Assembly: GCF_044647545.1 (NCBI RefSeq)
Contig: NZ_CP172818.1
Source of the DNA: Escherichia coli
GTDB lineage: Bacteria; Pseudomonadota; Gammaproteobacteria; Enterobacterales; Enterobacteriaceae
DNA length: 64,000 nucleotides
Strand: one strand, 5' to 3'
Shown here piece by piece: positions 1,603-43,515 of this stretch. The notes below the pieces were generated by a model that was given only the letters and a program-made list of their open reading frames with translations, ran no database searches and was not told the DNA's origin. The translations under genes were made by a program, and so were the position numbers. The first letter of the stretch is position 1. The number at the start of each line of letters is the position of its first letter.

Positions 1603-1796
1603 TTACTTTGCTCCATTCCGTGCTGGCTGCGCTTGCGGTCAGCACACCTCACTTCTCGTGATCAAGATCACATTCTCGCTTTCCCCTGCGACACGGGTGT
1701 CGAATCCATTTATTGCTGAACGTTAATGACCATCATTTTTGTACCGTTCAGAATCCAGTTAACACATAAATTATTGAATATATTAAATTAATCAGA

Positions 1797-1813
1797 CTGG
1801 CATCCTTTATGCA
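1797..1813 (+). promoter_or_regulatory. Sigma-54 (-24/-12) promoter of the hyf operon
   Basis: cTGGCATcctttaTGCAa: GG and GC separated by 10 nt, matching TGGCAC-N5-TTGCA; about 40 nt upstream of the hyfA ATG; operon encodes a sigma-54 activator (HyfR). Confidence 0.7.
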
Positions 1814-1854
1814 ATATGAAATGCAATGTTTCATATCATTTTCAAGGAGCCGAC

Positions 1855-2472
1855 ATGAACCGCTTTGTGGTGGCCGAACCACTGTGGTGTACAGGATGTA
1901 ATACCTGTCTCGCTGCCTGTTCGGACGTGCATAAAACGCAAGGTTTACAGCAACACCCGCGCCTGGCCCTGGCGAAGACGTCAACACTCACTGCCCCTGT
2001 CGTGTGTCATCACTGTGAGGAAGCCCCTTGCCTGCAGGTCTGCCCGGTCAATGCCATCTCCCAGAGGGACGATGCGATCCAACTCAACGAAAGCCTCTGT
2101 ATTGGCTGCAAGCTTTGCGCCGTGGTCTGCCCATTTGGCGCAATCAGCGCTTCAGGAAGCCGTCCGGTGAATGCCCCTGCGCAATATGTTTTTCAGGCTG
2201 AGGGCTCACTCAAAGACGGCGAAGAAAACGCGCCAACCCAACATGCTTTGCTGCGCTGGGAACCGGGTGTCCAGACCGTCGCGGTGAAATGCGACCTGTG
2301 TGATTTCTTGCCAGAAGGTCCGGCCTGCGTTCGCGCTTGTCCGAATCAGGCGTTACGGCTGATCACCGACGATAGCCTGCAACGTCAGATGAAAGAAAAA
2401 CAGCGCCTTGCCGCAAGCTGGTTTGCCAATGGCGGGGAGGATCCCCTTTCCCTCACTCAGGAGCAACGCTAA
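1855..2472 (+). CDS. hyfA: Hydrogenase-4 ferredoxin-like subunit (multiple 4Fe-4S Cys clusters)
   Basis: 205 aa from ATG 1855 after caaggag RBS; motifs CTGCNTCLAAC, CHHCEEAPC, CIGCKLCAVVCP, CDLC...CVRACP. Confidence 0.92.
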   Translation: MNRFVVAEPLWCTGCNTCLAACSDVHKTQGLQQHPRLALAKTSTLTAPVVCHHCEEAPCLQVCPVNAISQRDDAIQLNESLCIGCKLCAVVCPFGAISASGSRPVNAPAQYVFQAEGSLKDGEENAPTQHALLRWEPGVQTVAVKCDLCDFLPEGPACVRACPNQALRLITDDSLQRQMKEKQRLAASWFANGGEDPLSLTQEQR

Positions 2473-4490
2473 TGGATGCCCTGCAATTATTAACCTGGTC
2501 GCTGATCCTCTATCTGTTTGCCAGTCTGGCTTCGCTATTTTTACTCGGTCTGGACAGACTGGCTATTAAGCTTTCCGGCATCACATCGCTGGTGGGCGGC
2601 GTGATTGGCATCATCAGCGGAATTACGCAATTACATGCAGGCGTAACTTTAGCCGCCCGTTTTGCCACACCTTTTGAATTTGCCGATTTAACCCTGCGAA
2701 TGGATAGCCTCTCGGCATTTATGGTGCTGGTTATCTCCTTGCTGGTGGTGGTTTGTTCGCTCTATTCATTGACTTATATGCGCGAATACGAGGGTAAAGG
2801 CGCGGCGGCGATGGGCTTCTTTATGAATCTTTTCATCGCATCGATGGTTGCCCTGCTGGTGATGGACAACGCTTTTTGGTTCATCGTGCTGTTTGAAATG
2901 ATGTCGCTGTCTTCCTGGTTTCTGGTCATTGCCAGGCAGGATAAAACGTCGATCAACGCTGGCATGCTCTACTTTTTTATCGCCCACGCCGGATCGGTGC
3001 TGATTATGATCGCCTTCTTGCTGATGGGGCGCGAAAGCGGCAGCCTCGATTTTGCCAGTTTCCGCACGCTTTCACTTTCTCCGGGGCTGGCGTCGGCGGT
3101 GTTCCTGCTGGCCTTTTTCGGTTTTGGCGCGAAAGCCGGGATGATGCCGTTGCACAGCTGGTTGCCGCGCGCTCACCCTGCCGCACCATCGCACGCTTCG
3201 GCGTTGATGTCTGGCGTAATGGTCAAAATCGGTATTTTCGGCATCCTTAAAGTAGCGATGGATCTGCTGGCGCAAACGGATTTGCCGCTGTGGTGGGGCA
3301 TTCTGGTGATGGCGATCGGCGCAATCTCCGCGCTCCTGGGCGTGCTATATGCGCTGGCGGAACAGGATATCAAACGGCTGCTGGCCTGGAGTACCGTCGA
3401 AAACGTCGGCATTATTTTGCTGGCGGTCGGTGTGGCGATGGTCGGTCTGTCACTGCACGACCCGCTGCTCACCGTTGTTGGACTGCTCGGCGCGCTGTTT
3501 CATCTGCTCAACCATGCGCTGTTCAAAGGGCTGCTGTTTCTCGGCGCGGGCGCAATTATTTCGCGTTTGCATACCCACGACATGGAAAAAATGGGGGCAC
3601 TGGCGAAACGGATGCCGTGGACAGCCGCAGCATGCCTGATTGGTTGCCTCGCGATATCAGCCATTCCTCCGCTGAATGGTTTTATCAGCGAATGGTACAC
3701 CTGGCAGTCGCTGTTCTCACTAAGTCGTGTGGAAGCCGTAGCGCTACAACTTGCGGGTCCTATTGCTATGGTGATGCTGGCAGTCACTGGTGGGCTGGCA
3801 GTAATGTGCTTCGTCAAAATGTACGGCATTACTTTCTGTGGTGCGCCGCGCAGTACACACGCTGAAGAGGCACAGGACGTGCCAAATACGATGATCGTCG
3901 CCATGCTACTGCTCGCGGCACTCTGCGTATTCATTGCGCTTAGTGCCAGTTGGCTGGCACCGAAGATAATGCACATTGCCCATGCGTTTACCAATACCCC
4001 TCCCGTCACTGTCGCCAGCGGAATAGCACTTGTACCCGGCACGTTTCATACACGGGTCACTCCCTCATTACTGTTGCTGTTACTACTGGCGATGCCTTTG
4101 CTGCCTGGCCTTTACTGGCTGTGGTGTCGTTCGCGCCGCGCAGCGTTTCGTCGCACAGGAGATGCCTGGGCATGCGGCTACGGCTGGGATAATGCGATGG
4201 CCCCGTCAGGCAATGGCGTGATGCAGCCGCTGCGTGTGGTCTTTTGTGCGCTATTTCGTCTACGACAACAGCTCGACCCTACGCTGAGGCTGAACAAAGG
4301 TCTTGCGCACGTCACCGCCAGGGCTCAGAGCACAGAACCCTTCTGGGATGAGCGGGTGATCCGCCCCATCGTGAGCGCCACCCAACGGCTGGCCAAAGAA
4401 ATACAGCATCTGCAAAGCGGCGACTTTCGTCTCTATTGCCTGTATGTGGTCGCCGCACTGGTTGTGCTGCTAATCGCTATTGCCGTCTAA
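2472..4490 (+). CDS. hyfB: Hydrogenase-4 membrane subunit, NuoL/Mrp antiporter-like
   Basis: 672-aa polytopic hydrophobic ORF; start overlaps hyfA stop (TAATG). Confidence 0.92.
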   Translation: MDALQLLTWSLILYLFASLASLFLLGLDRLAIKLSGITSLVGGVIGIISGITQLHAGVTLAARFATPFEFADLTLRMDSLSAFMVLVISLLVVVCSLYSLTYMREYEGKGAAAMGFFMNLFIASMVALLVMDNAFWFIVLFEMMSLSSWFLVIARQDKTSINAGMLYFFIAHAGSVLIMIAFLLMGRESGSLDFASFRTLSLSPGLASAVFLLAFFGFGAKAGMMPLHSWLPRAHPAAPSHASALMSGVMVKIGIFGILKVAMDLLAQTDLPLWWGILVMAIGAISALLGVLYALAEQDIKRLLAWSTVENVGIILLAVGVAMVGLSLHDPLLTVVGLLGALFHLLNHALFKGLLFLGAGAIISRLHTHDMEKMGALAKRMPWTAAACLIGCLAISAIPPLNGFISEWYTWQSLFSLSRVEAVALQLAGPIAMVMLAVTGGLAVMCFVKMYGITFCGAPRSTHAEEAQDVPNTMIVAMLLLAALCVFIALSASWLAPKIMHIAHAFTNTPPVTVASGIALVPGTFHTRVTPSLLLLLLLAMPLLPGLYWLWCRSRRAAFRRTGDAWACGYGWDNAMAPSGNGVMQPLRVVFCALFRLRQQLDPTLRLNKGLAHVTARAQSTEPFWDERVIRPIVSATQRLAKEIQHLQSGDFRLYCLYVVAALVVLLIAIAV

Positions 4491-4500
4491 GGAAATCACC

Positions 4501-5448
4501 ATGAGACAAACTCTTTGCGACGGATATCTGATCATTTTTGCGTTAGCACAGGCCGTGATTCTGCTGGCGCTAACCCCGCTTTTTACGGGGATTTCCCGGC
4601 AGATACGCGCGCGTATGCACTCCCGTCGCGGACCGGGGATCTGGCAGGATTATCGCGATATCCACAAACTGTTTAAACGCCAGGAAGTTGCGCCGACATC
4701 TTCAGGTCTGATGTTCCGCCTGATGCCGTGGGTATTAATCAGCAGCATGCTGGTGCTGGCGATGGCCCTACCACTATTTATTACTGTTTCCCCTTTTGCG
4801 GGCGGCGGCGATCTGATCACCCTTATCTATCTTCTTGCCCTATTTCGTTTTTTCTTTGCTCTTTCCGGGCTGGATACCGGAAGCCCCTTTGCGGGAATCG
4901 GTGCCAGTCGCGAGTTAACGCTCGGCATTCTGGTCGAACCCATGCTCATTCTCTCACTGCTGGTATTGGCGCTGATAGCGGATTCCACGCATATCGAGAT
5001 GATCAGCAAGACGCTGGCGACGGGCTGGAACTCGCCGCTAACCACCGTACTGGCGTTACTGGCCTGTGGTTTTGCCTGCTTCATTGAGATGGGAAAAATT
5101 CCCTTTGATGTTGCTGAAGCAGAACAGGAATTACAGGAAGGCCCGCTGACCGAATATTCCGGTGCCGGGCTGGCGCTGGCGAAGTTGGGGCTGGGGCTGA
5201 AACAGGTCGTGATGGCATCACTGTTTGTGGCCCTGTTTCTGCCCTTTGGGCGCGCGCAAGAGCTTTCTCTCACCTGCCTGCTGACTTCACTTGTCGTTAC
5301 GCTGCTCAAGGTTTTGCTGATTTTTGTTCTGGCCTCTATCGCAGAAAACACGCTGGCACGCGGGCGATTTTTACTCATTCACCATGTGACCTGGCTTGGC
5401 TTCAGCCTTGCTGCGCTTGCCTGGGTCTTCTGGTTAACCGGTCTGTAA
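4501..5448 (+). CDS. hyfC: Hydrogenase-4 membrane subunit (NuoH/HycD-like)
   Basis: 315 aa from ATG 4501 (MRQTLCDGYLIIFALAQ...); hydrophobic; upstream ggaaatcacc RBS. Confidence 0.9.
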   Translation: MRQTLCDGYLIIFALAQAVILLALTPLFTGISRQIRARMHSRRGPGIWQDYRDIHKLFKRQEVAPTSSGLMFRLMPWVLISSMLVLAMALPLFITVSPFAGGGDLITLIYLLALFRFFFALSGLDTGSPFAGIGASRELTLGILVEPMLILSLLVLALIADSTHIEMISKTLATGWNSPLTTVLALLACGFACFIEMGKIPFDVAEAEQELQEGPLTEYSGAGLALAKLGLGLKQVVMASLFVALFLPFGRAQELSLTCLLTSLVVTLLKVLLIFVLASIAENTLARGRFLLIHHVTWLGFSLAALAWVFWLTGL

Positions 5449-5464
5449 GGAGCACTAACGGAAT

Positions 5465-6904
5465 ATGGAAAATCTTGCTCTGACGACGTTATTGCTGCCT
5501 TTTATCGGCGCACTGGTCGTTTCGTTTTCGCCACAACGTCGGGCCGCCGAATGGGGGGTTTTGTTCGCCGCGCTGACCACGCTGTGCATGTTGTCACTGA
5601 TCTCCGCGTTTTATCAGGCCGATAAAGTTGCCGTCACGTTGACGTTGGTCAACGTGGGGGATGTGGCGTTGTTTGGCCTGGTCATTGATCGCGTGAGTAC
5701 GCTGATTCTGTTTGTGGTGGTGTTCCTCGGTTTGCTGGTCACGATCTACTCCACGGGTTATCTGACGGATAAAAATCGCGAACACCTGCATAACGGCACG
5801 AATCGTTATTACGCATTTTTGCTGGTTTTTATCGGCGCGATGGCGGGACTGGTACTCTCCTCGACGCTGCTCGGTCAGTTGTTGTTTTTTGAAATTACGG
5901 GCGGCTGCTCCTGGGCGTTGATCAGTTATTACCAGAGCGATAAAGCGCAGCGTTCAGCACTAAAAGCGTTACTTATCACTCATATCGGTTCGCTGGGGTT
6001 GTATCTTGCCGCCGCCACGCTGTTTTTGCAGACCGGAACGTTTGCGCTTAGCGCGATGAGCGAGTTACACGGCGACGCACGTTATCTGGTTTATGGCGGC
6101 ATCCTGTTTGCCGCGTGGGGGAAATCGGCCCAGCTACCGATGCAAGCGTGGCTACCGGATGCAATGGAAGCGCCAACACCGATCAGCGCCTATCTCCACG
6201 CCGCATCGATGGTGAAAGTGGGCGTTTACATTTTTGCCCGTGCCATTATCGACGGCGGCAATATCCCGCATGTGATTGGCGGCGTTGGCATGGTTATGGC
6301 ACTGGTCACCATTCTTTACGGCTTCCTGATGTATTTGCCACAGCAGGATATGAAGCGGTTGCTGGCCTGGTCGACCATCACTCAACTTGGCTGGATGTTT
6401 TTCGGCTTGTCGCTCTCCATCTTCGGCTCGCGGCTGGCGCTGGAGGGCAGCATCGCCTACATCGTCAACCACGCGTTCGCTAAAAGCCTATTTTTCCTTG
6501 TAGCAGGTGCGCTGAGTTACAGCTGCGGCACGCGCTTGTTGCCGCGTCTGCGTGGCGTATTGCACACCCTGCCGTTGCCAGGCGTGGGTTTCTGCGTAGC
6601 CGCGCTGGCGATTACTGGCGTACCGCCGTTCAACGGCTTCTTCAGTAAATTCCCGCTGTTTGCCGCCGGTTTTTCGTTGTCAGTGGAGTACTGGATCCTG
6701 CTGCCCGCCATGATTCTGCTGATGTTTGAATCGGTCGCCAGTTTCGCCTGGTTTATTCGCTGGTTTGGTCGCGTCGTGCCTGGCAAACCGAGCGAGGCCG
6801 TCGCCGATGCCGCACCGCTGCCAGGATCAATGCGCCTGGTGTTGATTGTACTGATTGTGATGTCGCTGATTTCCAGCGTAATCGCCGCGACCTGGTTGCA
6901 GTAA
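5465..6904 (+). CDS. hyfD: Hydrogenase-4 membrane subunit, antiporter-like (NuoM/N family)
   Basis: 479-aa polytopic ORF, paralogous in character to hyfB and hyfF. Confidence 0.9.
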   Translation: MENLALTTLLLPFIGALVVSFSPQRRAAEWGVLFAALTTLCMLSLISAFYQADKVAVTLTLVNVGDVALFGLVIDRVSTLILFVVVFLGLLVTIYSTGYLTDKNREHLHNGTNRYYAFLLVFIGAMAGLVLSSTLLGQLLFFEITGGCSWALISYYQSDKAQRSALKALLITHIGSLGLYLAAATLFLQTGTFALSAMSELHGDARYLVYGGILFAAWGKSAQLPMQAWLPDAMEAPTPISAYLHAASMVKVGVYIFARAIIDGGNIPHVIGGVGMVMALVTILYGFLMYLPQQDMKRLLAWSTITQLGWMFFGLSLSIFGSRLALEGSIAYIVNHAFAKSLFFLVAGALSYSCGTRLLPRLRGVLHTLPLPGVGFCVAALAITGVPPFNGFFSKFPLFAAGFSLSVEYWILLPAMILLMFESVASFAWFIRWFGRVVPGKPSEAVADAAPLPGSMRLVLIVLIVMSLISSVIAATWLQ

Positions 6905-6915
6905 GGAGATGATGA

Positions 6916-7566
6916 ATGACCGGTTCTATGATCGTAAATAATCTGGCGGGACTGATGATGCTGACATCGCTGTTTGTGATTAGCGTCAAAAGCTATCGCC
7001 TGTCATGCGGATTTTACGCCTGCCAGTCGCTGGTGCTGGTGTCTATTTTCGCCACCCTCTCGTGCCTGTTCGTCGCAGAGCAACTGCTGATCTGGTCCGC
7101 CAGCGCCTTTATCACCAAAGTGCTGCTGGTACCGTTAATCATGATTTACGCTGCACGAAATATTCCCCAGAACATCCCGGAAAAAGCGTTATTCGGTCCG
7201 GCTATGATGGCATTGCTCGCGGCATTAATTGTCCTGCTTTGCGCATTTGTCGTTCAGCCCGTGAAGCTACCGATGGCTACCGGGCTGAAACCGGCGCTGG
7301 CGGTGGCGTTAGGTCATTTTCTGCTTGGCCTGCTGTGCATTGTCAGCCAGCGCAATATCCTGCGGCAAATTTTTGGTTACTGCCTGATGGAAAACGGCTC
7401 CCATCTGGTGCTGGCGCTTCTTGCCTGGCGTGCACCGGAACTGGTGGAAATTGGTATCGCTACCGACGCCATCTTCGCCGTCATTGTGATGGTGTTACTG
7501 GCAAGAAAAATATGGCGTACCCACGGCACGCTGGACGTGAACAACTTGACCGCGCTGAAGGGATAA
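6916..7566 (+). CDS. hyfE: Hydrogenase-4 small membrane subunit (NuoK-like)
   Basis: 216-aa hydrophobic ORF in operon context. Confidence 0.88.
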
Positions 7567-7570
7567 TGAG

Positions 7571-9151
7571 ATGAGTTATTCTGTGATGTTCGCTTTACTC
7601 CTGCTCACGCCGCTGCTTTTTTCGCTGCTCTGTTTTGCCTGCCGGAAATGGGGACACTCTGCGACTCGCACGGTGACAGTACTACATAGCTTAGGGATCA
7701 CACTGCTGCTGATTCTGACACTGTGGGTGGTCCAAACTGCCGCTGATGCGGGAGAAATATTCGCTGCGGGACTGTGGCTTCATATTGATGGTCTGGGCGG
7801 TTTGTTCCTCGCCATTCTTGGTGTGATTGGCTTTCTCACCGGTGTTTACTCGATTGGCTACATGCGTCATGAAGTGGCACACGGCGAGCTTTCACCCGTT
7901 ACGCTGTGCGATTACTACGGTTTCTTCCATCTGTTTTTGTTCACCATGCTGCTGGTTGTTACCAGCAATAACCTGATTGTGATGTGGGCGGCGATCGAAG
8001 CCACCACCTTAAGCTCGGCGTTTCTGGTAGGCATTTACGGTCAGCGTTCATCGCTGGAAGCTGCATGGAAGTACATCATTATTTGTACTGTTGGTGTCGC
8101 TTTTGGTCTGTTCGGTACCGTGCTGGTATACGCCAACGCCGCCAGCGTTATGCCGCAGGCAGAAATGGCGATATTCTGGAGCGAGGTTCTTAAGCAATCG
8201 TCCTTGCTTGACCCAACATTAATGCTGTTGGCCTTTGTGTTTGTGCTAATTGGCTTTGGCACCAAAACCGGGCTATTCCCCATGCACGCCTGGCTGCCAG
8301 ATGCTCACAGTGAAGCGCCGAGTCCGGTCAGCGCCCTGCTCTCCGCCGTATTGCTGAACTGCGCGCTATTGGTGCTGATTCGCTATTACATCATTATTTG
8401 CCAGGCCATCGGCAGCGATTTCCCCAACCGGTTGTTGCTCATCTTCGGCATGTTGTCGGTTGCCGTGGCGGCATTTTTCATTCTGGTACAGCGGGACATT
8501 AAGCGTCTGCTGGCGTACTCCAGCGTGGAGAACATGGGACTGGTCGCGGTGGCGTTAGGCATTGGCGGGCCGCTGGGAATTTTTGCCGCGCTGCTGCACA
8601 CCTTAAACCACAGTCTGGCAAAAACGCTGCTGTTCTGCGGTTCCGGCAATGTACTGCTCAAGTACGGCACGCGCGATCTCAACGTCGTCTGCGGAATGCT
8701 CAAAATCATGCCATTTACCGCCGTGCTGTTTGGCGGCGGTGCGCTGGCGCTGGCCGGGATGCCGCCCTTCAACATTTTTCTTAGCGAATTTATGACCGTT
8801 ACCGCCGGACTGGCGCGTAATCACCTGCTGATTATCGTCCTGCTGTTATTGCTGTTAACGCTGGTGCTGGCGGGCCTGGTACGGATGGCTGCGCGGGTGT
8901 TAATGGCGAAACCGCCGCAGGCCGTTAACCGGGGTGAACTTGGCTGGTTGACCACCTCGCCAATGGTGATTCTGCTGGTCATGATGCTGGCGATGGGAAC
9001 GCATATTCCACAACCTGTCATCAGGATCCTGGCGGGCGCTTCCACTATAGTCCTCTCAGGGACGCACGACCTGCCTGCACAACGTAGCACCTGGCATGAT
9101 TTTTTGCCTTCAGGCACCGCATCTGTTTCGGAGAAACACAGTGAACGTTAA
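7571..9151 (+). CDS. hyfF: Hydrogenase-4 membrane subunit, antiporter-like
   Basis: 526-aa polytopic ORF; third antiporter-like paralog in the operon. Confidence 0.9.
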
Positions 9152-10856
9152 TTCATCGTCAAATCGTGGCGAAGCGATTCTCGCCGCCCTGAAAACGCAG
9201 TTCCCCGGCGCGGTGCTGGATGAAGAGCGACAAACGCCTGAACAGGTCACCATTACGGTGAAAATCAATCTGCTGCCTGACGTTGTGCATTATCTTTATT
9301 ATCAACATGATGGCTGGCTTCCGGTCCTGTTTGGCAACGACGAGCGGACACTTAACGGTCATTACGCGGTTTATTATGCCCTTTCTATGGAAGGGGCCGA
9401 AAAATGCTGGATCGTGGTGAAGGCACTGGTCGATGCCGACAGTCGGGAGTTTCCGTCAGTCACACCGCGCGTCCCTGCCGCGGTCTGGGGCGAGCGAGAA
9501 ATTCGCGATATGTACGGGTTGATTCCGGTTGGCCAGCCGGATCAGCGTCGGCTGGTGTTGCCCGATGACTGGCCGGAAGATATGCATCCGCTGCGCAAAG
9601 ACGCGATGGATTATCGACTGCGCCCAGAACCGACGACTGATACCGAAACGTATCCGTTTATCAACGAGGGCAACAGCGATGCGCGGGTGATCCCTGTCGG
9701 CCCGCTGCATATCACCTCCGATGAACCAGGTCACTTCCGCTTGTTTGTGGATGGCGAGCAAATTGTCGATGCTGATTACCGCCTGTTTTATGTCCATCGC
9801 GGCATGGAGAAACTGGCAGAAACGCGGATGGGCTACAACGAAGTGACCTTCTTATCCGACCGCGTGTGTGGGATTTGCGGTTTTGCCCACAGTGTGGCCT
9901 ATACCAACTCGGTTGAAAATGCACTGGGGATTGAGGTGCCGCAACGAGCGCATACTATTCGCTCGATTCTGCTGGAAGTCGAACGGCTGCATAGTCATTT
10001 GCTCAACCTTGGCCTCTCCTGCCATTTTGTTGGTTTTGATACCGGCTTTATGCAATTTTTCCGCGTGCGGGAAAAGTCGATGACGATGGCGGAATTGCTG
10101 ACCGGGTCGCGTAAAACCTACGGTCTGAATCTGATTGGTGGTGTTCGCCGCGATATTCTCAAAGAGCAACGTCTGCAAACGCTGAAACTGGTGCGCGAGA
10201 TGCGCGCCGACGTGTCGGAGCTGGTAGAGATGTTGCTTGCCACGCCGAATATGGAACAACGCACTCAGGGCATTGGCATTCTCGACCGACAAATCGCCCG
10301 TGATTATAGCCCCGTAGGGCCGCTGATCCGCGGCAGTGGCTTTGCCCGTGATTTGCGCTTTGATCACCCCTACGCCGACTACGGCAATATTCCCAAAACG
10401 CTGTTTACCTTTACCGGCGGCGATGTCTTCTCCCGCGTGATGGTCCGTGTCAAAGAGACGTTTGATTCGCTGGCAATGCTGGAATTTGCCCTCGACAACA
10501 TGCCAGATACCCCACTGCTGACCGAAGGCTTTAGCTATAAACCTCACGCATTCGCGCTGGGCTTTGTTGAAGCGCCACGTGGTGAAGACGTGCACTGGAG
10601 CATGCTCGGTGATAACCAAAAATTGTTCCGCTGGCGCTGTCGTGCCGCCACCTACGCCAACTGGCCAGTGCTGCGTTACATGCTGCGCGGCAATACCGTT
10701 TCTGACGCACCGCTGATTATCGGTAGCCTTGATCCCTGTTACTCCTGTACCGACCGTGTGACGCTGGTTGATGTGCGCAAGCGCCAGTCAAAAACCGTGC
10801 CGTATAAAGAGATCGAACGCTACGGCATTGATCGTAACCGTTCGCCGCTGAAGTAA
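9141..10856 (+). CDS. hyfG: Hydrogenase-4 [NiFe] large catalytic subunit
   Basis: N-terminal NiFe ligand motif [10 protein letters not shown] and C-terminal DPCYSCTDR. Start ambiguous: GTG 9141 (overlaps hyfF stop by 11 nt) or ATG 9096. Confidence 0.9.
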
Positions 10857-10865
10857 GGACAGAAA

Positions 10866-11411
10866 ATGCTGAAGTTACTGAAAACTATTATGCGCGCCGG
10901 AACCGCGACGGTGAAATATCCCTTCGCGCCACTGGAGGTCAGCCCAGGCTTTCGCGGGAAACCGGACCTGATGCCCAGCCAATGTATTGCCTGCGGTGCC
11001 TGCGCCTGTGCTTGTCCGGCAAATGCGCTGACTATCCAGACCGACGACCAACAAAATACGCGCACCTGGCAGCTCTATCTGGGGCGTTGTATTTACTGCG
11101 GACGTTGTGAAGAAGTGTGCCCGACCAGAGCCATTCAGCTTACCAATAACTTTGAACTGACCGTCACCAATAAAGCCGATCTCTATACCCGCGCGACGTT
11201 TCATCTACAACGTTGCAGTCGTTGCGAACGCCCATTTGCCCCGCAAAAAACCGTCGCACTGGCTGCAGAACTGTTGGCACAGCAACAAAATGCGCCACAA
11301 AACCGCGAAATGTTGTGGGCGCAAGCGAGCATCTGCCCGGAATGCAAACAACGCGCGACGCTGATCAACGACGATACAGATGTACCGCTGGTGGCTAAGG
11401 AGCAGCTATGA
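10866..11411 (+). CDS. hyfH: Hydrogenase-4 ferredoxin-type subunit (2x 4Fe-4S)
   Basis: 181 aa; [12 protein letters not shown] and [12 protein letters not shown] motifs. Confidence 0.9.
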
Positions 11412-12166
11412 GTCCAGTGCTTACGCAACATGTCAGCCAGCCCATAACGCTGGACGAGCAAACGCAAAAGATGAAGCAGCATTTGCTACAGGATATCCGT
11501 CGCTCGGCTTACGTTTATCGCGTCGATTGCGGCGGCTGCAACGCCTGCGAAATCGAAATTTTTGCCGCCATCACACCCGTATTCGACGCAGAACGTTTTG
11601 GCATTAAGGTTGTTTCATCACCGCGTCACGCCGATATTTTGTTATTTACTGGCGCAGTCACCCGGGCGATGCGTATGCCTGCACTTCGGGCATATGAGTC
11701 TGCCCCCGATCATAAAATCTGTGTTTCCTACGGCGCGTGCGGTGTCGGCGGCGGTATTTTCCACGATCTTTACAGCGTCTGGGGCGGCAGCGACACCATT
11801 GTCCCCATTGATGTTTGGATCCCCGGCTGCCCGCCAACACCGGCCGCCACCATTCACGGTTTCGCCGTGGCGCTCGGTTTGCTGCAACAGAAGATTCACG
11901 CGGTGGATTATCGCGATCCCACCGGGGTGACCATGCAACCGCTGTGGCCGCAGATCCCGCCATCACAGCGTATCGCCATTGAGCGAGAAGCGAGGCGGCT
12001 GGCGGGCTATCGTCAAGGGCGAGAAATTTGCGATCGGCTCCTGCGCCATTTAAGCGACGATCCTACAGGAAATCGGGTTAACACCTGGTTGCGCGAAGCT
12101 GACGATCCACGTCTCAATAGTATCGTTCAGCAACTCTTTCGCGTTCTCCGGGGGTTACATGGCTGA
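11408..12166 (+). CDS. hyfI: Hydrogenase-4 small subunit (NuoB/HycG-like, Fe-S)
   Basis: 252 aa; CGGCNAC ... GACGVGGG ... PGCPP motifs typical of NuoB-type small subunits; overlaps hyfH stop. Confidence 0.9.
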
Positions 12167-12572
12167 GGAGTGCAGGGAAATTGTTTTCTGGACGCTGCGA
12201 AAAAAATTTATCGCCAGTAGCGACGAGATGCCGGAACACAGCTCCCAGGTAATGTATTACTCGTTGGCTATCGGTCATCACGTTGGCGTGATTGATTGTT
12301 TGAATGTCGCCTTCCGCTGCCCACAGACGGAATACGAAGATTGGCTTGCACAGGTCGAAGAGGAGCAAGCCCGACGTAAGATGCTGGGGGTGATGACTTT
12401 TGGTGAGATTGTTATTGACGCCAGCCACACCGCCCTGTTGACCCGGGCATTCGCGCCACTGGCAGATGACGCGACGTCGGCGTGGCAGGCGCGTAGCATT
12501 CAATTCATTCATCTGTTGGATGAAATTGTGCAGGAACCGGTCATCTATCTGATGGCCAGAAAAATTGCGTGA
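12159..12572 (+). CDS. hyfJ: Hydrogenase-4 maturation/assembly factor (HycH-like)
   Basis: 137-aa ORF overlapping hyfI 3' end; operon position. Confidence 0.85.
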
Positions 12573-12601: not shown

Positions 12602-14614
12602 ATGGCTATGTCAGACGAGGCGATGTTTGCCCCGCCGCAAGGAATAACAATTGAAGCGGTAAACGGAATGCTCGCGGAGCGGTTAGCACAGAAACACGGC
12701 AAGGCGTCTTTATTACGCGCCTTCATCCCGCTGCCGCCGCCGTTCAGCCCGGTACAACTTATTGAACTGCATGTTCTCAAAAGCAACTTCTATTACCGCT
12801 ACCATGATGATGGCAGCGATGTGACGGCAACAACAGAGTATCAGGGTGAGATGGTCGATTATTCGCGCCACGCCGTCCTTCTCGGCAGTAGTGGAATGGC
12901 GGAGCTACGCTTTATTCGCACCCACGGCAGTCGTTTTACTCCCCAGGATTGCACACTGTTTAACTGGCTGGCACACATAATCACTCCGGTTCTGCAATCA
13001 TGGCTCAATGATGAAGAACAGCAGGTGGCGCTGCGTTTGCTGGAGAAAGATCGCGATCATCATCGGGTACTGGTGGATATCACTAATGCAGTGTTGTCAC
13101 ATCTTGATCTCGACGATCTGATCGCTGACGTCGCTCGTGAGATCCATCATTTTTTCGGTCTGGCTTCAGTCAGTATGGTACTGGGCGATCATCGAAAGAA
13201 CGAGAAGTTCAGCCTGTGGTGCAGCGATCTTTCTGCCTCACATTGTGCGTGTCTGCCACGCTGTATGCCTGGCGAAAGTGTATTGCTGACACAAACGCTA
13301 CAAACCCGACAACCGACCTTGACGCACTGTGCAGACGATCTGTTTCTCTGGCAACGCGACCCGTTATTACACTTACTTGCATCTAACGGCTGCGAATCTG
13401 CGCTCCTTATACCGCTCACCTTTGGCAACCATACACCGGGTGCATTGTTGCTGGCGCATACCTCTTCCACTCTCTTTAGTGAGGAAAACTGCCAGCTACT
13501 ACAACATATTGCCGATCGCATCGCTATTGCCGTTGGCAATGCCGATGCCTGGCGCAGCATGACCGATTTGCAGGAAAGCTTGCAGCAAGAAAACCACCAG
13601 CTTAGCGAGCAGCTCCTTTCGAATCTGGGCGTCGGTGACATTATCTATCAAAGCCAGGCAATGGAAGACCTGCTCCAGCAGGTAGATATTGTGGCGAAGA
13701 GCGACAGTACGGTGTTGATTTGTGGTGAAACCGGAACCGGCAAAGAGGTGATCGCCAGAGCGATCCATCAACTTAGCCCACGACGCGACAAGCCACTGGT
13801 CAAAATCAACTGCGCTGCCATCCCCGCCAGTCTTCTGGAAAGTGAGTTATTCGGTCATGACAAAGGGGCATTTACTGGTGCGATTAATACCCATCGTGGT
13901 CGTTTTGAAATTGCCGATGGCGGCACGTTGTTTCTCGATGAAATTGGCGATCTGCCGTTAGAACTTCAGCCTAAACTGCTGCGCGTATTGCAGGAACGGG
14001 AGATTGAGCGTCTCGGCGGGAGTAGAACGATCCCGGTAAATGTCAGAGTCATTGCCGCCACCAACCGTGATTTGTGGCAAATGGTTGAAGATCGCCAGTT
14101 TCGCAGCGATCTCTTTTATCGCCTGAATGTCTTCCCACTGGAACTGCCGCCACTGCGCGACCGTCCGGAAGATATCCCTCTTTTAGCAAAGCATTTCACG
14201 CAAAAAATGGCGCGCCATATGAATCGCGCAATTGACGCCATCCCGACCGAGGCGCTACGCCAGTTGATGTCGTGGGACTGGCCGGGCAACGTGCGCGAGC
14301 TGGAAAACGTGATTGAGCGAGCGGTACTACTGACTCGCGGTAACAGTCTGAATTTACATCTTAATGTCCGACAAAGCCGTTTACTGCCGACGCTAAATGA
14401 AGATTCAGCGCTTCGCAGTTCAATGGCGCAGTTACTGCACCCGACGACGCCAGAGAATGACGAAGAAGAACGTCAGCGCATTGTTCAGGTATTGCGAGAA
14501 ACCAATGGCATTGTTGCCGGGCCCCGTGGCGCGGCGACACGATTAGGGATGAAGCGCACCACGCTGCTGTCACGAATGCAGCGTCTGGGGATCTCGGTTC
14601 GCGAGGTGTTGTAA
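12602..14614 (+). CDS. hyfR: Sigma-54-dependent transcriptional activator of hyf (FhlA paralog)
   Basis: 670 aa from ATG 12602; Walker A GETGTGKE, sigma-54 contact motif GAFTGA, C-terminal HTH. Confidence 0.92.
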
Positions 14615-14635: not shown

Positions 14636-15484
14636 ATGAGAAACAAACTCTCTTTCGACTTGCAGTTGAGCGCCAGAAAAGCGGCAATCGCTGAACGGAT
14701 TGCCGCCCATAAAATTACCCGCAGCAAAGTGTCGGTCTTTTTAATGGCGATGTCCGCAGGCGTGTTTATGGCGATCGGATTTACTTTTTACCTTACCGTT
14801 ATCGCCGATGCCCCGTCTTCACAGGCATTAACCCATCTGGTGGGCGGCCTTTGCTTTACACTCGGCTTTATTTTGCTGGCGGTTTGCGGCACCAGCCTGT
14901 TCACCTCGTCGGTAATGACGGTGATGGCAAAAAGTCGGGGCGTTATTAGCTGGCGAACATGGCTGATTAATGCACTTCTGGTGGCCTGCGGTAATCTGGC
15001 AGGTATTGCCTGTTTCAGTTTGTTAATCTGGTTTTCCGGGCTGGTGATGAGTGAAAACGCGATGTGGGGAGTCGCGGTTTTACACTGCGCCGAGGGCAAA
15101 ATGCATCATACATTTACTGAATCAGTCAGCCTCGGCATTATGTGCAATGTGATGGTTTGCCTGGCGCTGTGGATGAGTTATTGCGGACGTTCGTTATGCG
15201 ACAAAATCGTCGCCATGATTTTGCCCATCACCCTGTTTGTCGCCAGTGGCTTTGAGCACTGTATCGCCAATTTATTTGTGATTCCGTTCGCCATTGCCAT
15301 TCGCCATTTCGCCCCTACCTCCTTCTGGCAACTGGCGCACAGTAGCGCAGACCATTTTCCGGCACTGACGGTCAGCCATTTTATTACCGCCAATCTGCTC
15401 CCGGTGATGCTGGGTAATATTATCGGCGGTGCAGTGCTGGTGAGTATTTGTTATCGGGCTATTTATTTACGTCAGGAACCCTAA
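14636..15484 (+). CDS. focB: Formate channel, FNT family
   Basis: 282-aa polytopic ORF at the end of the hyf operon. Confidence 0.9.
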   Translation: MRNKLSFDLQLSARKAAIAERIAAHKITRSKVSVFLMAMSAGVFMAIGFTFYLTVIADAPSSQALTHLVGGLCFTLGFILLAVCGTSLFTSSVMTVMAKSRGVISWRTWLINALLVACGNLAGIACFSLLIWFSGLVMSENAMWGVAVLHCAEGKMHHTFTESVSLGIMCNVMVCLALWMSYCGRSLCDKIVAMILPITLFVASGFEHCIANLFVIPFAIAIRHFAPTSFWQLAHSSADHFPALTVSHFITANLLPVMLGNIIGGAVLVSICYRAIYLRQEP

Positions 15485-42504: not shown

Positions 42505-43515
42505 TTACTGCGCCGGTGATTGTTCGGCATTGAGGGTCAGACGCGCAACCTGGTTAGTTCTGATAAAACGACTCAGATCGACAGGTTTCCCTTGATACTG
42601 GATCTGTACTGCGGCTGGCGCACCAATTTTCAGTTTGTACGGTGCCTGGCCGGTTAAGTTCAAATTACCGTCTTTACGCTGCATACCGCTAAACAGTTTT
42701 TTACCGGTAGCATCGGTGACTTCCAGCCAGCAATCGGCAGTAAAGTTCATCACCAGCGCATTCGGGTCAACCGCCGGCGTAGTCACGCCAGCCTGATCGG
42801 TTGGCAACGGCGCAGCGCCATCTGGTGTTGTTGTTGCCGCTGGTGCCGGAGTCGCAGCGGTATCAACATTTGCCTGCGAAGGTGGAACAACCGCATTCTG
42901 TTGTGAATCGACGGTTGGCGATGGAGCCGTCGTCGCGGCAGGTGTTTGCGTGTTAGTTGCGGTGGTATCCACCGGTGATGTCGGCGTGGTCGCCATAGCC
43001 TGATCTGTGGTTGTCGACGTATCTAACGGTACACTCTGGCTTTGATTATTATTCAGTTCCGCAGAAGATTGATCGGCCATAGTGGTGATCTCTTCCTGCT
43101 GAGCTTTGTGGTCTTGCCACCACCAGGCACCGCTCAGGCCAATAACCACAAACAACACCAGCCAGGTGAAGGTCATCAGCCAGCCGTCACGTTTTTTGCG
43201 GCGTTTACCGAGGGAAAAACTCTGCATCGGCGCAACTTTTGCAGCCCGTAGTGGAGCCTGCTTTTCCAGCCCTGGCAGCAGTTCTTCTTCTGGAATATGT
43301 ACCAGACGCGCATAAGAGCGGATATATCCGCGCAGGAATGTTGAAGCAAGATCGGCGGGTGCCTTATCTTCTTCAATGTCGCGTACCGTGGAAACCTTCA
43401 GGCAAAGTCGCTCGGCAACGGCCTGTTGACTAAGTCCTAGTTGTTCGCGAGCATTACGCAGGCGAGCGCCGGTAGTAAGTGCTTCATTTTGGTCGTGCGT
43501 GGCTTCAGTATTCAT
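42505..43515 (-). CDS. rodZ: Cytoskeleton protein RodZ (HTH - TM - Pro/Thr/Ala-rich linker - periplasmic domain)
   Basis: 336 aa; Xre-type HTH N-terminus, TM helix, low-complexity T/P/A linker. Confidence 0.92.

Follow-up and report, generated by a model that had tools for sequence, protein, structure and literature searches.

The sigma-54 promoter hyfAp ahead of the hydrogenase-4 operon in an Escherichia coli strain carrying full-length hyfG

The question raised by the hydrogenase-4 (hyf) locus of Escherichia coli is from which promoter the operon is transcribed and which activator opens it. The stretch of DNA analysed here (the window) comprises 64,000 nucleotides of E. coli contig NZ_CP172818.1 (assembly GCF_044647545.1), which sequence match and K-12 annotation identify as the bcp-hyfABCDEFGHIJ-hyfR-focB region, with gcvR also lying on this chromosome segment. 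The gene order is that of K-12 MG1655, and positions 1200-2600 are 100% identical to several non-K-12 strains, where they are annotated as bcp, hyfA and hyfB. All ten hyf structural open reading frames are intact, including hyfG in its full-length form of 571 amino acids. The genes of the cluster and the translation signal of hyfA are as follows.

1844..1849, + strand: Shine-Dalgarno sequence AAGGAG of hyfA (read directly; invariant in an alignment of Escherichia, Citrobacter and Kosakonia)
1855..12572, + strand: hyfABCDEFGHIJ, the hydrogenase-4 structural genes (open reading frames, K-12 annotation, Pfam 4Fe-4S matches of HyfA)
12602..14614, + strand: hyfR, encoding a sigma-54 enhancer-binding protein with GAF, AAA+ (with GAFTGA) and HTH_8 parts (Pfam, GAFTGA, likeness to FhlA)
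14636..15484, + strand: focB, encoding a formate channel, the last gene of the cluster (Pfam Form_Nir_trans, 2.5e-64; annotation)

The annotated start codon of hyfA is the ATG at 1855, with AAGGAG on its 5' side. The in-frame ATG at 1816, used as the hyfA start by the program that listed the open reading frames, was rejected, since it lies 5' of the point where the transcript is predicted to begin and lacks a Shine-Dalgarno sequence, so that 1855 is the real start. The hyf promoter and hyfA region found no match in 1,129 (21%) of the 5,426 complete E. coli genomes, while bcp is present in nearly all, and hence the hyf operon is missing from a sizeable share of the species.

Two features of the 252-nt gap between bcp and hyfA define the promoter itself.

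1797..1813, + strand: sigma-54 -24/-12 promoter element CTGGCATCCTTTATGCA, with GG at 1799-1800 and GC at 1811-1812 (read directly, matrix ranks, core of the K-12 site OS23, conservation)
1824..1825, + strand: predicted transcription start (from the geometry of the motif)

The letters run c1797, TGGCAT (1798-1803), CCTTTA (1804-1809), TGCA (1810-1813) and a1814, with a GG-GC spacing of exactly 10 nt, as in TGGCACG-N4-TTGCW. From TGGCAT to ATGCA, 13 of 16 positions agree with TGGCACGNNNNTTGCW, leaving three mismatches. The element lies in the sense orientation to hyfA, and 41 nt separate its end from the hyfA ATG. An earlier note, made from the sequence alone, had read here cTGGCAT-N6-TGCAa with GG and GC 10 nt apart, about 40 nt before hyfA, and both the reading and the distance are borne out; the extent of 1797-1813 given there is right at its start, but the quoted string overruns its end by one base, a1814. 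Of the attributes of a sigma-54 promoter, one finds here the GG/GC spacing, the intergenic sense placement before the first gene of an operon, an activator carrying GAFTGA, and conservation.

In K-12, which does not differ from the window between TGGCAT and the hyfA ATG, this is site OS23, with the motif ATGGCATCCTTTATGCA, bound by sigma-54 in ChIP-seq with a fold-above-threshold (FAT) value of 16; its start is predicted 31 nt ahead of hyfA, and it is flagged as a promoter that EcoCyc counts as experimentally confirmed (PMC4591121). The bcp/hyfA spacer is also among the strongest peaks of genomic SELEX with the RpoN holoenzyme, at 92% with the holoenzyme alone and at 100%, as the reference peak, with NtrC (Shimada et al. 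2021, PMC8743547).

As to the start site, taking C1812 as position -12 places +1 at 1824; 1825 corresponds to the start, 30 nt ahead of hyfA, that Skibinski et al. are said to have mapped by primer extension in 2002. The rule of Bonocora et al. (motif centre plus 19) returns 1824, which is 31 nt from hyfA and matches their table (PMC4591121). The exact start in this strain would consequently be expected at about 1824-1825. A perfect 8-nt inverted repeat, ATATGAAA-N7-TTTCATAT (1814-1821 and 1829-1836), straddles this position, and the direct repeat ATGCAAT lies around it at 1809-1815 and 1821-1827. These repeats at 1809-1836 are specific to E. coli and are conserved neither in Citrobacter nor in Kosakonia. 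The ATATGAAA/TTTCATAT pair was ruled out as a hairpin of the mRNA, its left arm being 5' of the predicted start. No significant folding was seen for the predicted 5' untranslated region (z 0.49), and Rfam offered no family for 1500-2100, the sole hit, a sub-threshold plant miRNA, being dismissed.

Taken as a string across the window, the motif is not significant. The window holds a single exact TGGCAY-N6-TGCA where 0.61 would be expected, the pattern also turns up at least once in 48 of 100 shuffles, and the loose consensus with three mismatches is not enriched in the window (105 matches versus 133 expected). A log-odds matrix for E. coli, built from 134 other sigma-54 motifs bound in ChIP-seq (PMC4591121) with hyfA left out, gives 1797-1813 the highest score of the roughly 128,000 positions on the two strands. 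Its score of 16.3 bits exceeds that of 83% of the training sites. By dinucleotide shuffles, equally good sites are expected at 0.42 per 64 kb on both strands, but the hyfA strand of the bcp-hyfA gap (252 nt) would hold only 0.0008. PMC7658346 prints a second matrix, independent of the first and covering 186 promoters of many species, with which the site reaches 11.94 bits and rank 13 of 127,970, losing score through its A at -14, its C at -19 and its T at -20; on this scale most confirmed promoters of E. coli outrank it, and it stands close to hydN, pspA and fdhF. The site is therefore above chance by its position, orientation and conservation, and not by its string alone.

Among the other matches to the E. 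coli matrix within the window, the second-best, TCGGCGCAACTTTTGCAG at 43227-43243, is antisense within rodZ, and a further one, ACGGCACGGTTTTTGACT at 10787-10803, is antisense within hyfG; they coincide with low-stringency sigma-54 ChIP peaks of K-12 with FAT values of 5 and 3, respectively, and exemplify the intragenic antisense sigma-54 sites of Bonocora et al. (PMC4591121). Their presence in the low-stringency list indicates that the E. coli matrix picks out genuinely bound sites. The third-best match in the window, ATGGCGCAGTTACTGCA at 14423-14439 (14.9 bits), lies inside hyfR, 197 nt before focB and sense to it, and ranks fifth with the 186-promoter matrix; it appears in neither the high- nor the low-stringency sigma-54 ChIP list of Bonocora et al. 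(PMC4591121).

The weakness of the string by itself, together with a rank of only 13th under the 186-promoter matrix, speaks for a different reading, in which 1797-1813 is a chance or non-productive sigma-54 site and hyf is served either by a promoter of the sigma-70 type within the gap or by transcripts reading through from bcp. Bonocora et al. (2015) indeed stressed that many sigma-54 sites bound in ChIP are not known to be productive promoters (PMC4591121). This reading is countered by the EcoCyc confirmation of the K-12 promoter and by the stated RpoN dependence of hyf (PMC7658346), and further by the conservation of the element and the content of the gap.

Within E. coli, the promoter region is found in 4,297 of 5,426 complete genomes, and positions 1800-1845 are identical in 3,777 of 4,289 (about 88%). 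None of the common variants affects GG or GC, those sampled being A1814T and T1815A just beyond the core, or a 5-nt AATGC duplication near the start, which in strain GF4-3 lies within the repeat area at 1809-1836. Strain PD7 carries a change of GG to GA in the -24 element (position 1800), which is likely a natural promoter-down allele. Position 1797 is polymorphic in the species, with A (as in K-12) in 2,602 exact 46-mers and C (as in the window) in 675. Among bound sites C (or T) is the commoner base here, and C adds 1.3 bits with the E. coli ChIP matrix.

Conservation extends to other species. Among 45 loci fetched because they encode relatives of HyfA, the 300 nt upstream were scanned at 43, and at 31 of these hyfA-like genes a strong motif precedes the start codon by 38-136 nt. 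The median best score upstream of the hyfA-like genes was 15.3, against 4.1 in control 300-nt windows. Of the 12 loci with no motif nearby, seven are of the hyc type, with a first gene the size of hycA and a motif of 14-18 bits ahead of that gene. In total, 38 of the 43 related hyf/hyc operons thus begin with an equivalent motif, the five true exceptions being from Alpha- or Betaproteobacteria. In Citrobacter, the closest relatives, ATGGCATCCTTTGTGCA lies equally far from hyfA, and in the alignment of Escherichia, Citrobacter and Kosakonia the -24/-12 core is one of several conserved islands in otherwise diverged sequence. That the position and orientation of the motif are kept at 38 of 43 operons while the flanks diverge argues against a chance site.

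Upstream of the promoter, the gap holds four further elements.

1620..1645, + strand: GC-rich hairpin just 3' of the bcp stop codon (11-bp stem, -25 kcal/mol, z -4.1)
1657..1672, unstranded: CRP-like palindrome CGTGATCAAGATCACA, of the type TGTGA-N6-TCACA with one mismatch (conservation only)
1689..1702, unstranded: candidate activator site for FhlA/HyfR, the inverted repeat CGACAC-GG-GTGTCG (perfect 6-nt arms, conservation, pentamer enrichment; binding presumed)
1727..1742, unstranded: invariant block TGACCATCATTTTTGT, lying between the candidate activator site and the promoter (alignment)

The hairpin, found in the same place in Citrobacter, probably insulates hyf from transcription of bcp. 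It has no T-run, and a terminator scan of 1500-1950 calls no canonical terminator, which leaves some room for read-through; yet the stability of the hairpin counts against it, and the scan of 1500-1950 found no sigma-70-like promoter that could replace the sigma-54 element. With both sides weighed, a chance site bypassed by another promoter or by read-through is extremely improbable. We hold it as nearly certain that 1797-1813 is the RpoN-dependent promoter hyfAp of the hyf operon, opened by an activator of the formate regulon bound upstream.

The best candidate for that upstream site is the CGACAC-GG-GTGTCG repeat, whose centre precedes the predicted start by about 129 nt and whose core, as CGACAC...G(T/C)CG, is kept in Citrobacter and Kosakonia in the alignment. 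For a promoter of the formate regulon one would expect repeats of the CGACA/TGTCG type about 80-150 nt before the start, and 1689-1702 is such a repeat. Counted over 200 nt upstream of each of 38 related sigma-54 promoters, these pentamers number 83 against about 17 expected, a five-fold enrichment, and they crowd the FhlA region of K-12 hyc-hyp, between hycA and hypA. This enrichment and their presence in the K-12 FhlA region support 1689-1702 as the enhancer-binding site. A published 14-nt FhlA matrix does not single it out, giving the CGACAC repeat 5.6 bits and the hyc-hyp control 15.4; its best match in the gap is the CRP-like palindrome, at 9.6 bits, which with 0.19 such matches expected by chance is not above chance. 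Since the FhlA matrix misses the CGACAC repeat, the assignment of the upstream sites is uncertain.

The CRP-like palindrome is found some 160 nt 5' of the predicted start, and three Citrobacter genomes have a perfect TGTGA-N6-TCACA at the aligned position. Its pattern is not above chance in the window, with three occurrences against 1.8 expected. Self et al. in 2004 are reported to have found that expression of hyf needs CRP. The block at 1727-1742 is the most conserved part of the intergenic region, with a single Y position varying among Escherichia, Citrobacter and Kosakonia, and is absent from the other hyf/hyc loci examined and from the K-12 hyc-hyp region. It shows no fit to the FhlA matrix, and none by eye to the IHF consensus. 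For 1689-1702, 1727-1742 and 1657-1672 alike, any assigned protein is putative.

A coherent sequence of events can be proposed from these elements. RNA polymerase carrying sigma-54 would occupy GG 1799-1800 and GC 1811-1812 as a closed complex unable to open the DNA alone. An AAA+ enhancer-binding protein of the formate regulon, either FhlA, or HyfR when abundant enough, or both, would bind some 100 bp further 5', with CGACAC-GG-GTGTCG (1689-1702) as the most likely site, and its GAFTGA loop would contact sigma-54, so that ATP hydrolysis opens the promoter. Transcription would then proceed from about 1824-1825 into hyfA, and the operon would remain off with no active activator. The CRP-like site (1657-1672) and the conserved block (1727-1742) would probably modulate this promoter. 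Of all this, the motif with its rank and conservation, the domains of HyfR and the upstream repeats were observed in the present analysis, and occupancy by sigma-54 and dependence on RpoN and FhlA come from published work on K-12. Inactivity of the closed complex without an activator is a general property of sigma-54, and as such it supports the expectation, voiced in the earlier note, that the operon is silent unless the activator is engaged. The promoter thus explains why hyf stays off unless a formate-responsive activator fires, which is established for K-12.

HyfR has Pfam domains GAF, Sigma54_activat (E 4.8e-75), AAA lid and HTH_8, and the GAFTGA sigma-54-contact motif that had been ascribed to it is indeed present, at residue 423 of the open reading frame. 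It is 51% identical to K-12 FhlA, the gene for which lies outside the window, and their C-terminal helix-turn-helix parts are near-identical, which makes it plausible that the two share one upstream site. One could suppose that HyfR is the dedicated and sufficient activator in a self-contained positive loop to which FhlA is irrelevant, as hyfR belongs to the same cluster and has all the features of a sigma-54 activator. The TGACCATCAYTTTTGT block, confined to the hyf promoters of Escherichia, Citrobacter and Kosakonia and not seen at hyc-hyp, could be specific to HyfR, and deletion of hyfR in Pectobacterium leads to very low FHL-2 activity (PMC7384014). However, the literature has hyf, like hyc, activated by FhlA and dependent on RpoN (PMC7658346). 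The near-identical recognition helices of HyfR and FhlA, together with the CGACA pentamers that the upstream repeat shares with the hyc-hyp FhlA region, also speak against a separate HyfR system, and a regulator encoded by the eleventh gene of a silent operon would be unable to start its own expression. Inactivation of chromosomal hyfR reportedly left hyfA-lacZ unchanged in the hands of Skibinski et al. (2002), strong induction being obtained only from over-produced HyfR. That study and the one of Self et al. in 2004 are likewise said to have found sigma-54 dependence, with activation by FhlA and by over-produced HyfR. Control by HyfR alone is therefore quite unlikely. FhlA is probably the main natural activator of hyf, and HyfR is a plausible activator but probably neither the sole nor the main one. 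The link of HyfR to sigma-54 control in the earlier note accordingly stands as to sigma-54 and its activator, but not as to HyfR in the lead, where the literature names FhlA (PMC7658346).

A separate observation concerns hyfG, which encodes the catalytic subunit. Its product has 571 residues in the window versus 555 in K-12 MG1655, where 16 residues, described as conserved, are missing due to a 48-nt in-frame deletion. The 10-nt direct repeat GCCCGTGATT flanks the deleted segment, at 10296-10305 and 10344-10353. HycE in the structure of FHL-1 (7Z0S, chain E) aligns without a gap over the 16 residues, as ARDFSNVGPMVRASGH, indicating that the long form of hyfG is ancestral. With a 161-nt query and a coverage line of 80%, hyfG is full length in 2,179 of the 4,294 E. 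coli genomes that have this part and deleted in about 2,115, including K-12 derivatives; a 65-nt probe of the insert under-counts (410 genomes), due to SNPs that break the 28-nt megablast word. In Finney et al. 2020, the hyf promoter was swapped for Phyc and PT5 in MG1655 and MC4100 backgrounds with no resulting Hyd-4 activity, from which it was concluded that unknown biosynthetic problems remain for Hyd-4. These attempts to wake up Hyd-4 by promoter swap were all made in K-12 backgrounds, which carry the 16-residue deletion in HyfG. The deletion could bear on the inactivity of K-12 Hyd-4 despite strong promoters; no mention of it was found in the searched passages of Finney 2020, Finney 2019 and the Trabulsiella preprint, and it could be noted elsewhere. 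A bolder proposal would be that hyf in this strain is not "silent and dead" as in K-12, and that a promoter with the consensus-type C and a full-length hyfG drive a working hydrogenase-4. We consider this rather doubtful, but if it were true, the failure to detect FHL-2 activity in E. coli, even after promoter replacement, would be largely a matter of the K-12 hyfG allele and not of regulation.

In comparison with known systems, the hyf sigma-54 promoter of the window is the already known hyfAp, found again in another strain, and as such adds nothing new. It shares with K-12 hyfAp (OS23) the locus, the CGACAC repeat, the CRP-like site and the conserved block, and differs by C in place of the K-12 A just 5' of TGG (1797) and by further SNPs at 1640, 1646, 1713, 1764, 1771, 1786 and 1788. 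Induction of hyf by formate, low pH and anaerobiosis via FhlA/HyfR is in the literature. With the FhlA-activated promoters of the formate regulon (hycA, hypA, fdhF and hydN) it has in common the -24/-12 layout and the CGACA/TGTCG repeats about 100 bp upstream, and with hycA and fdhF also the A at -14 (xATGC). It departs from them in that its pentamers form an inverted pair with a 2-nt gap, whereas those of hyc-hyp are in tandem, in the addition of a CRP-like site and a private conserved block, and in the poor score of its repeat with the FhlA matrix. With the generic sigma-54 class, such as glnAp2 and pspA, it shares the 10-nt GG/GC spacing, an enhancer-type site at a distance and the need for an AAA+ activator that carries GAFTGA, although it matches the consensus less well than glnAp2, at 11.9 versus 16.3 bits with the 186-promoter matrix.
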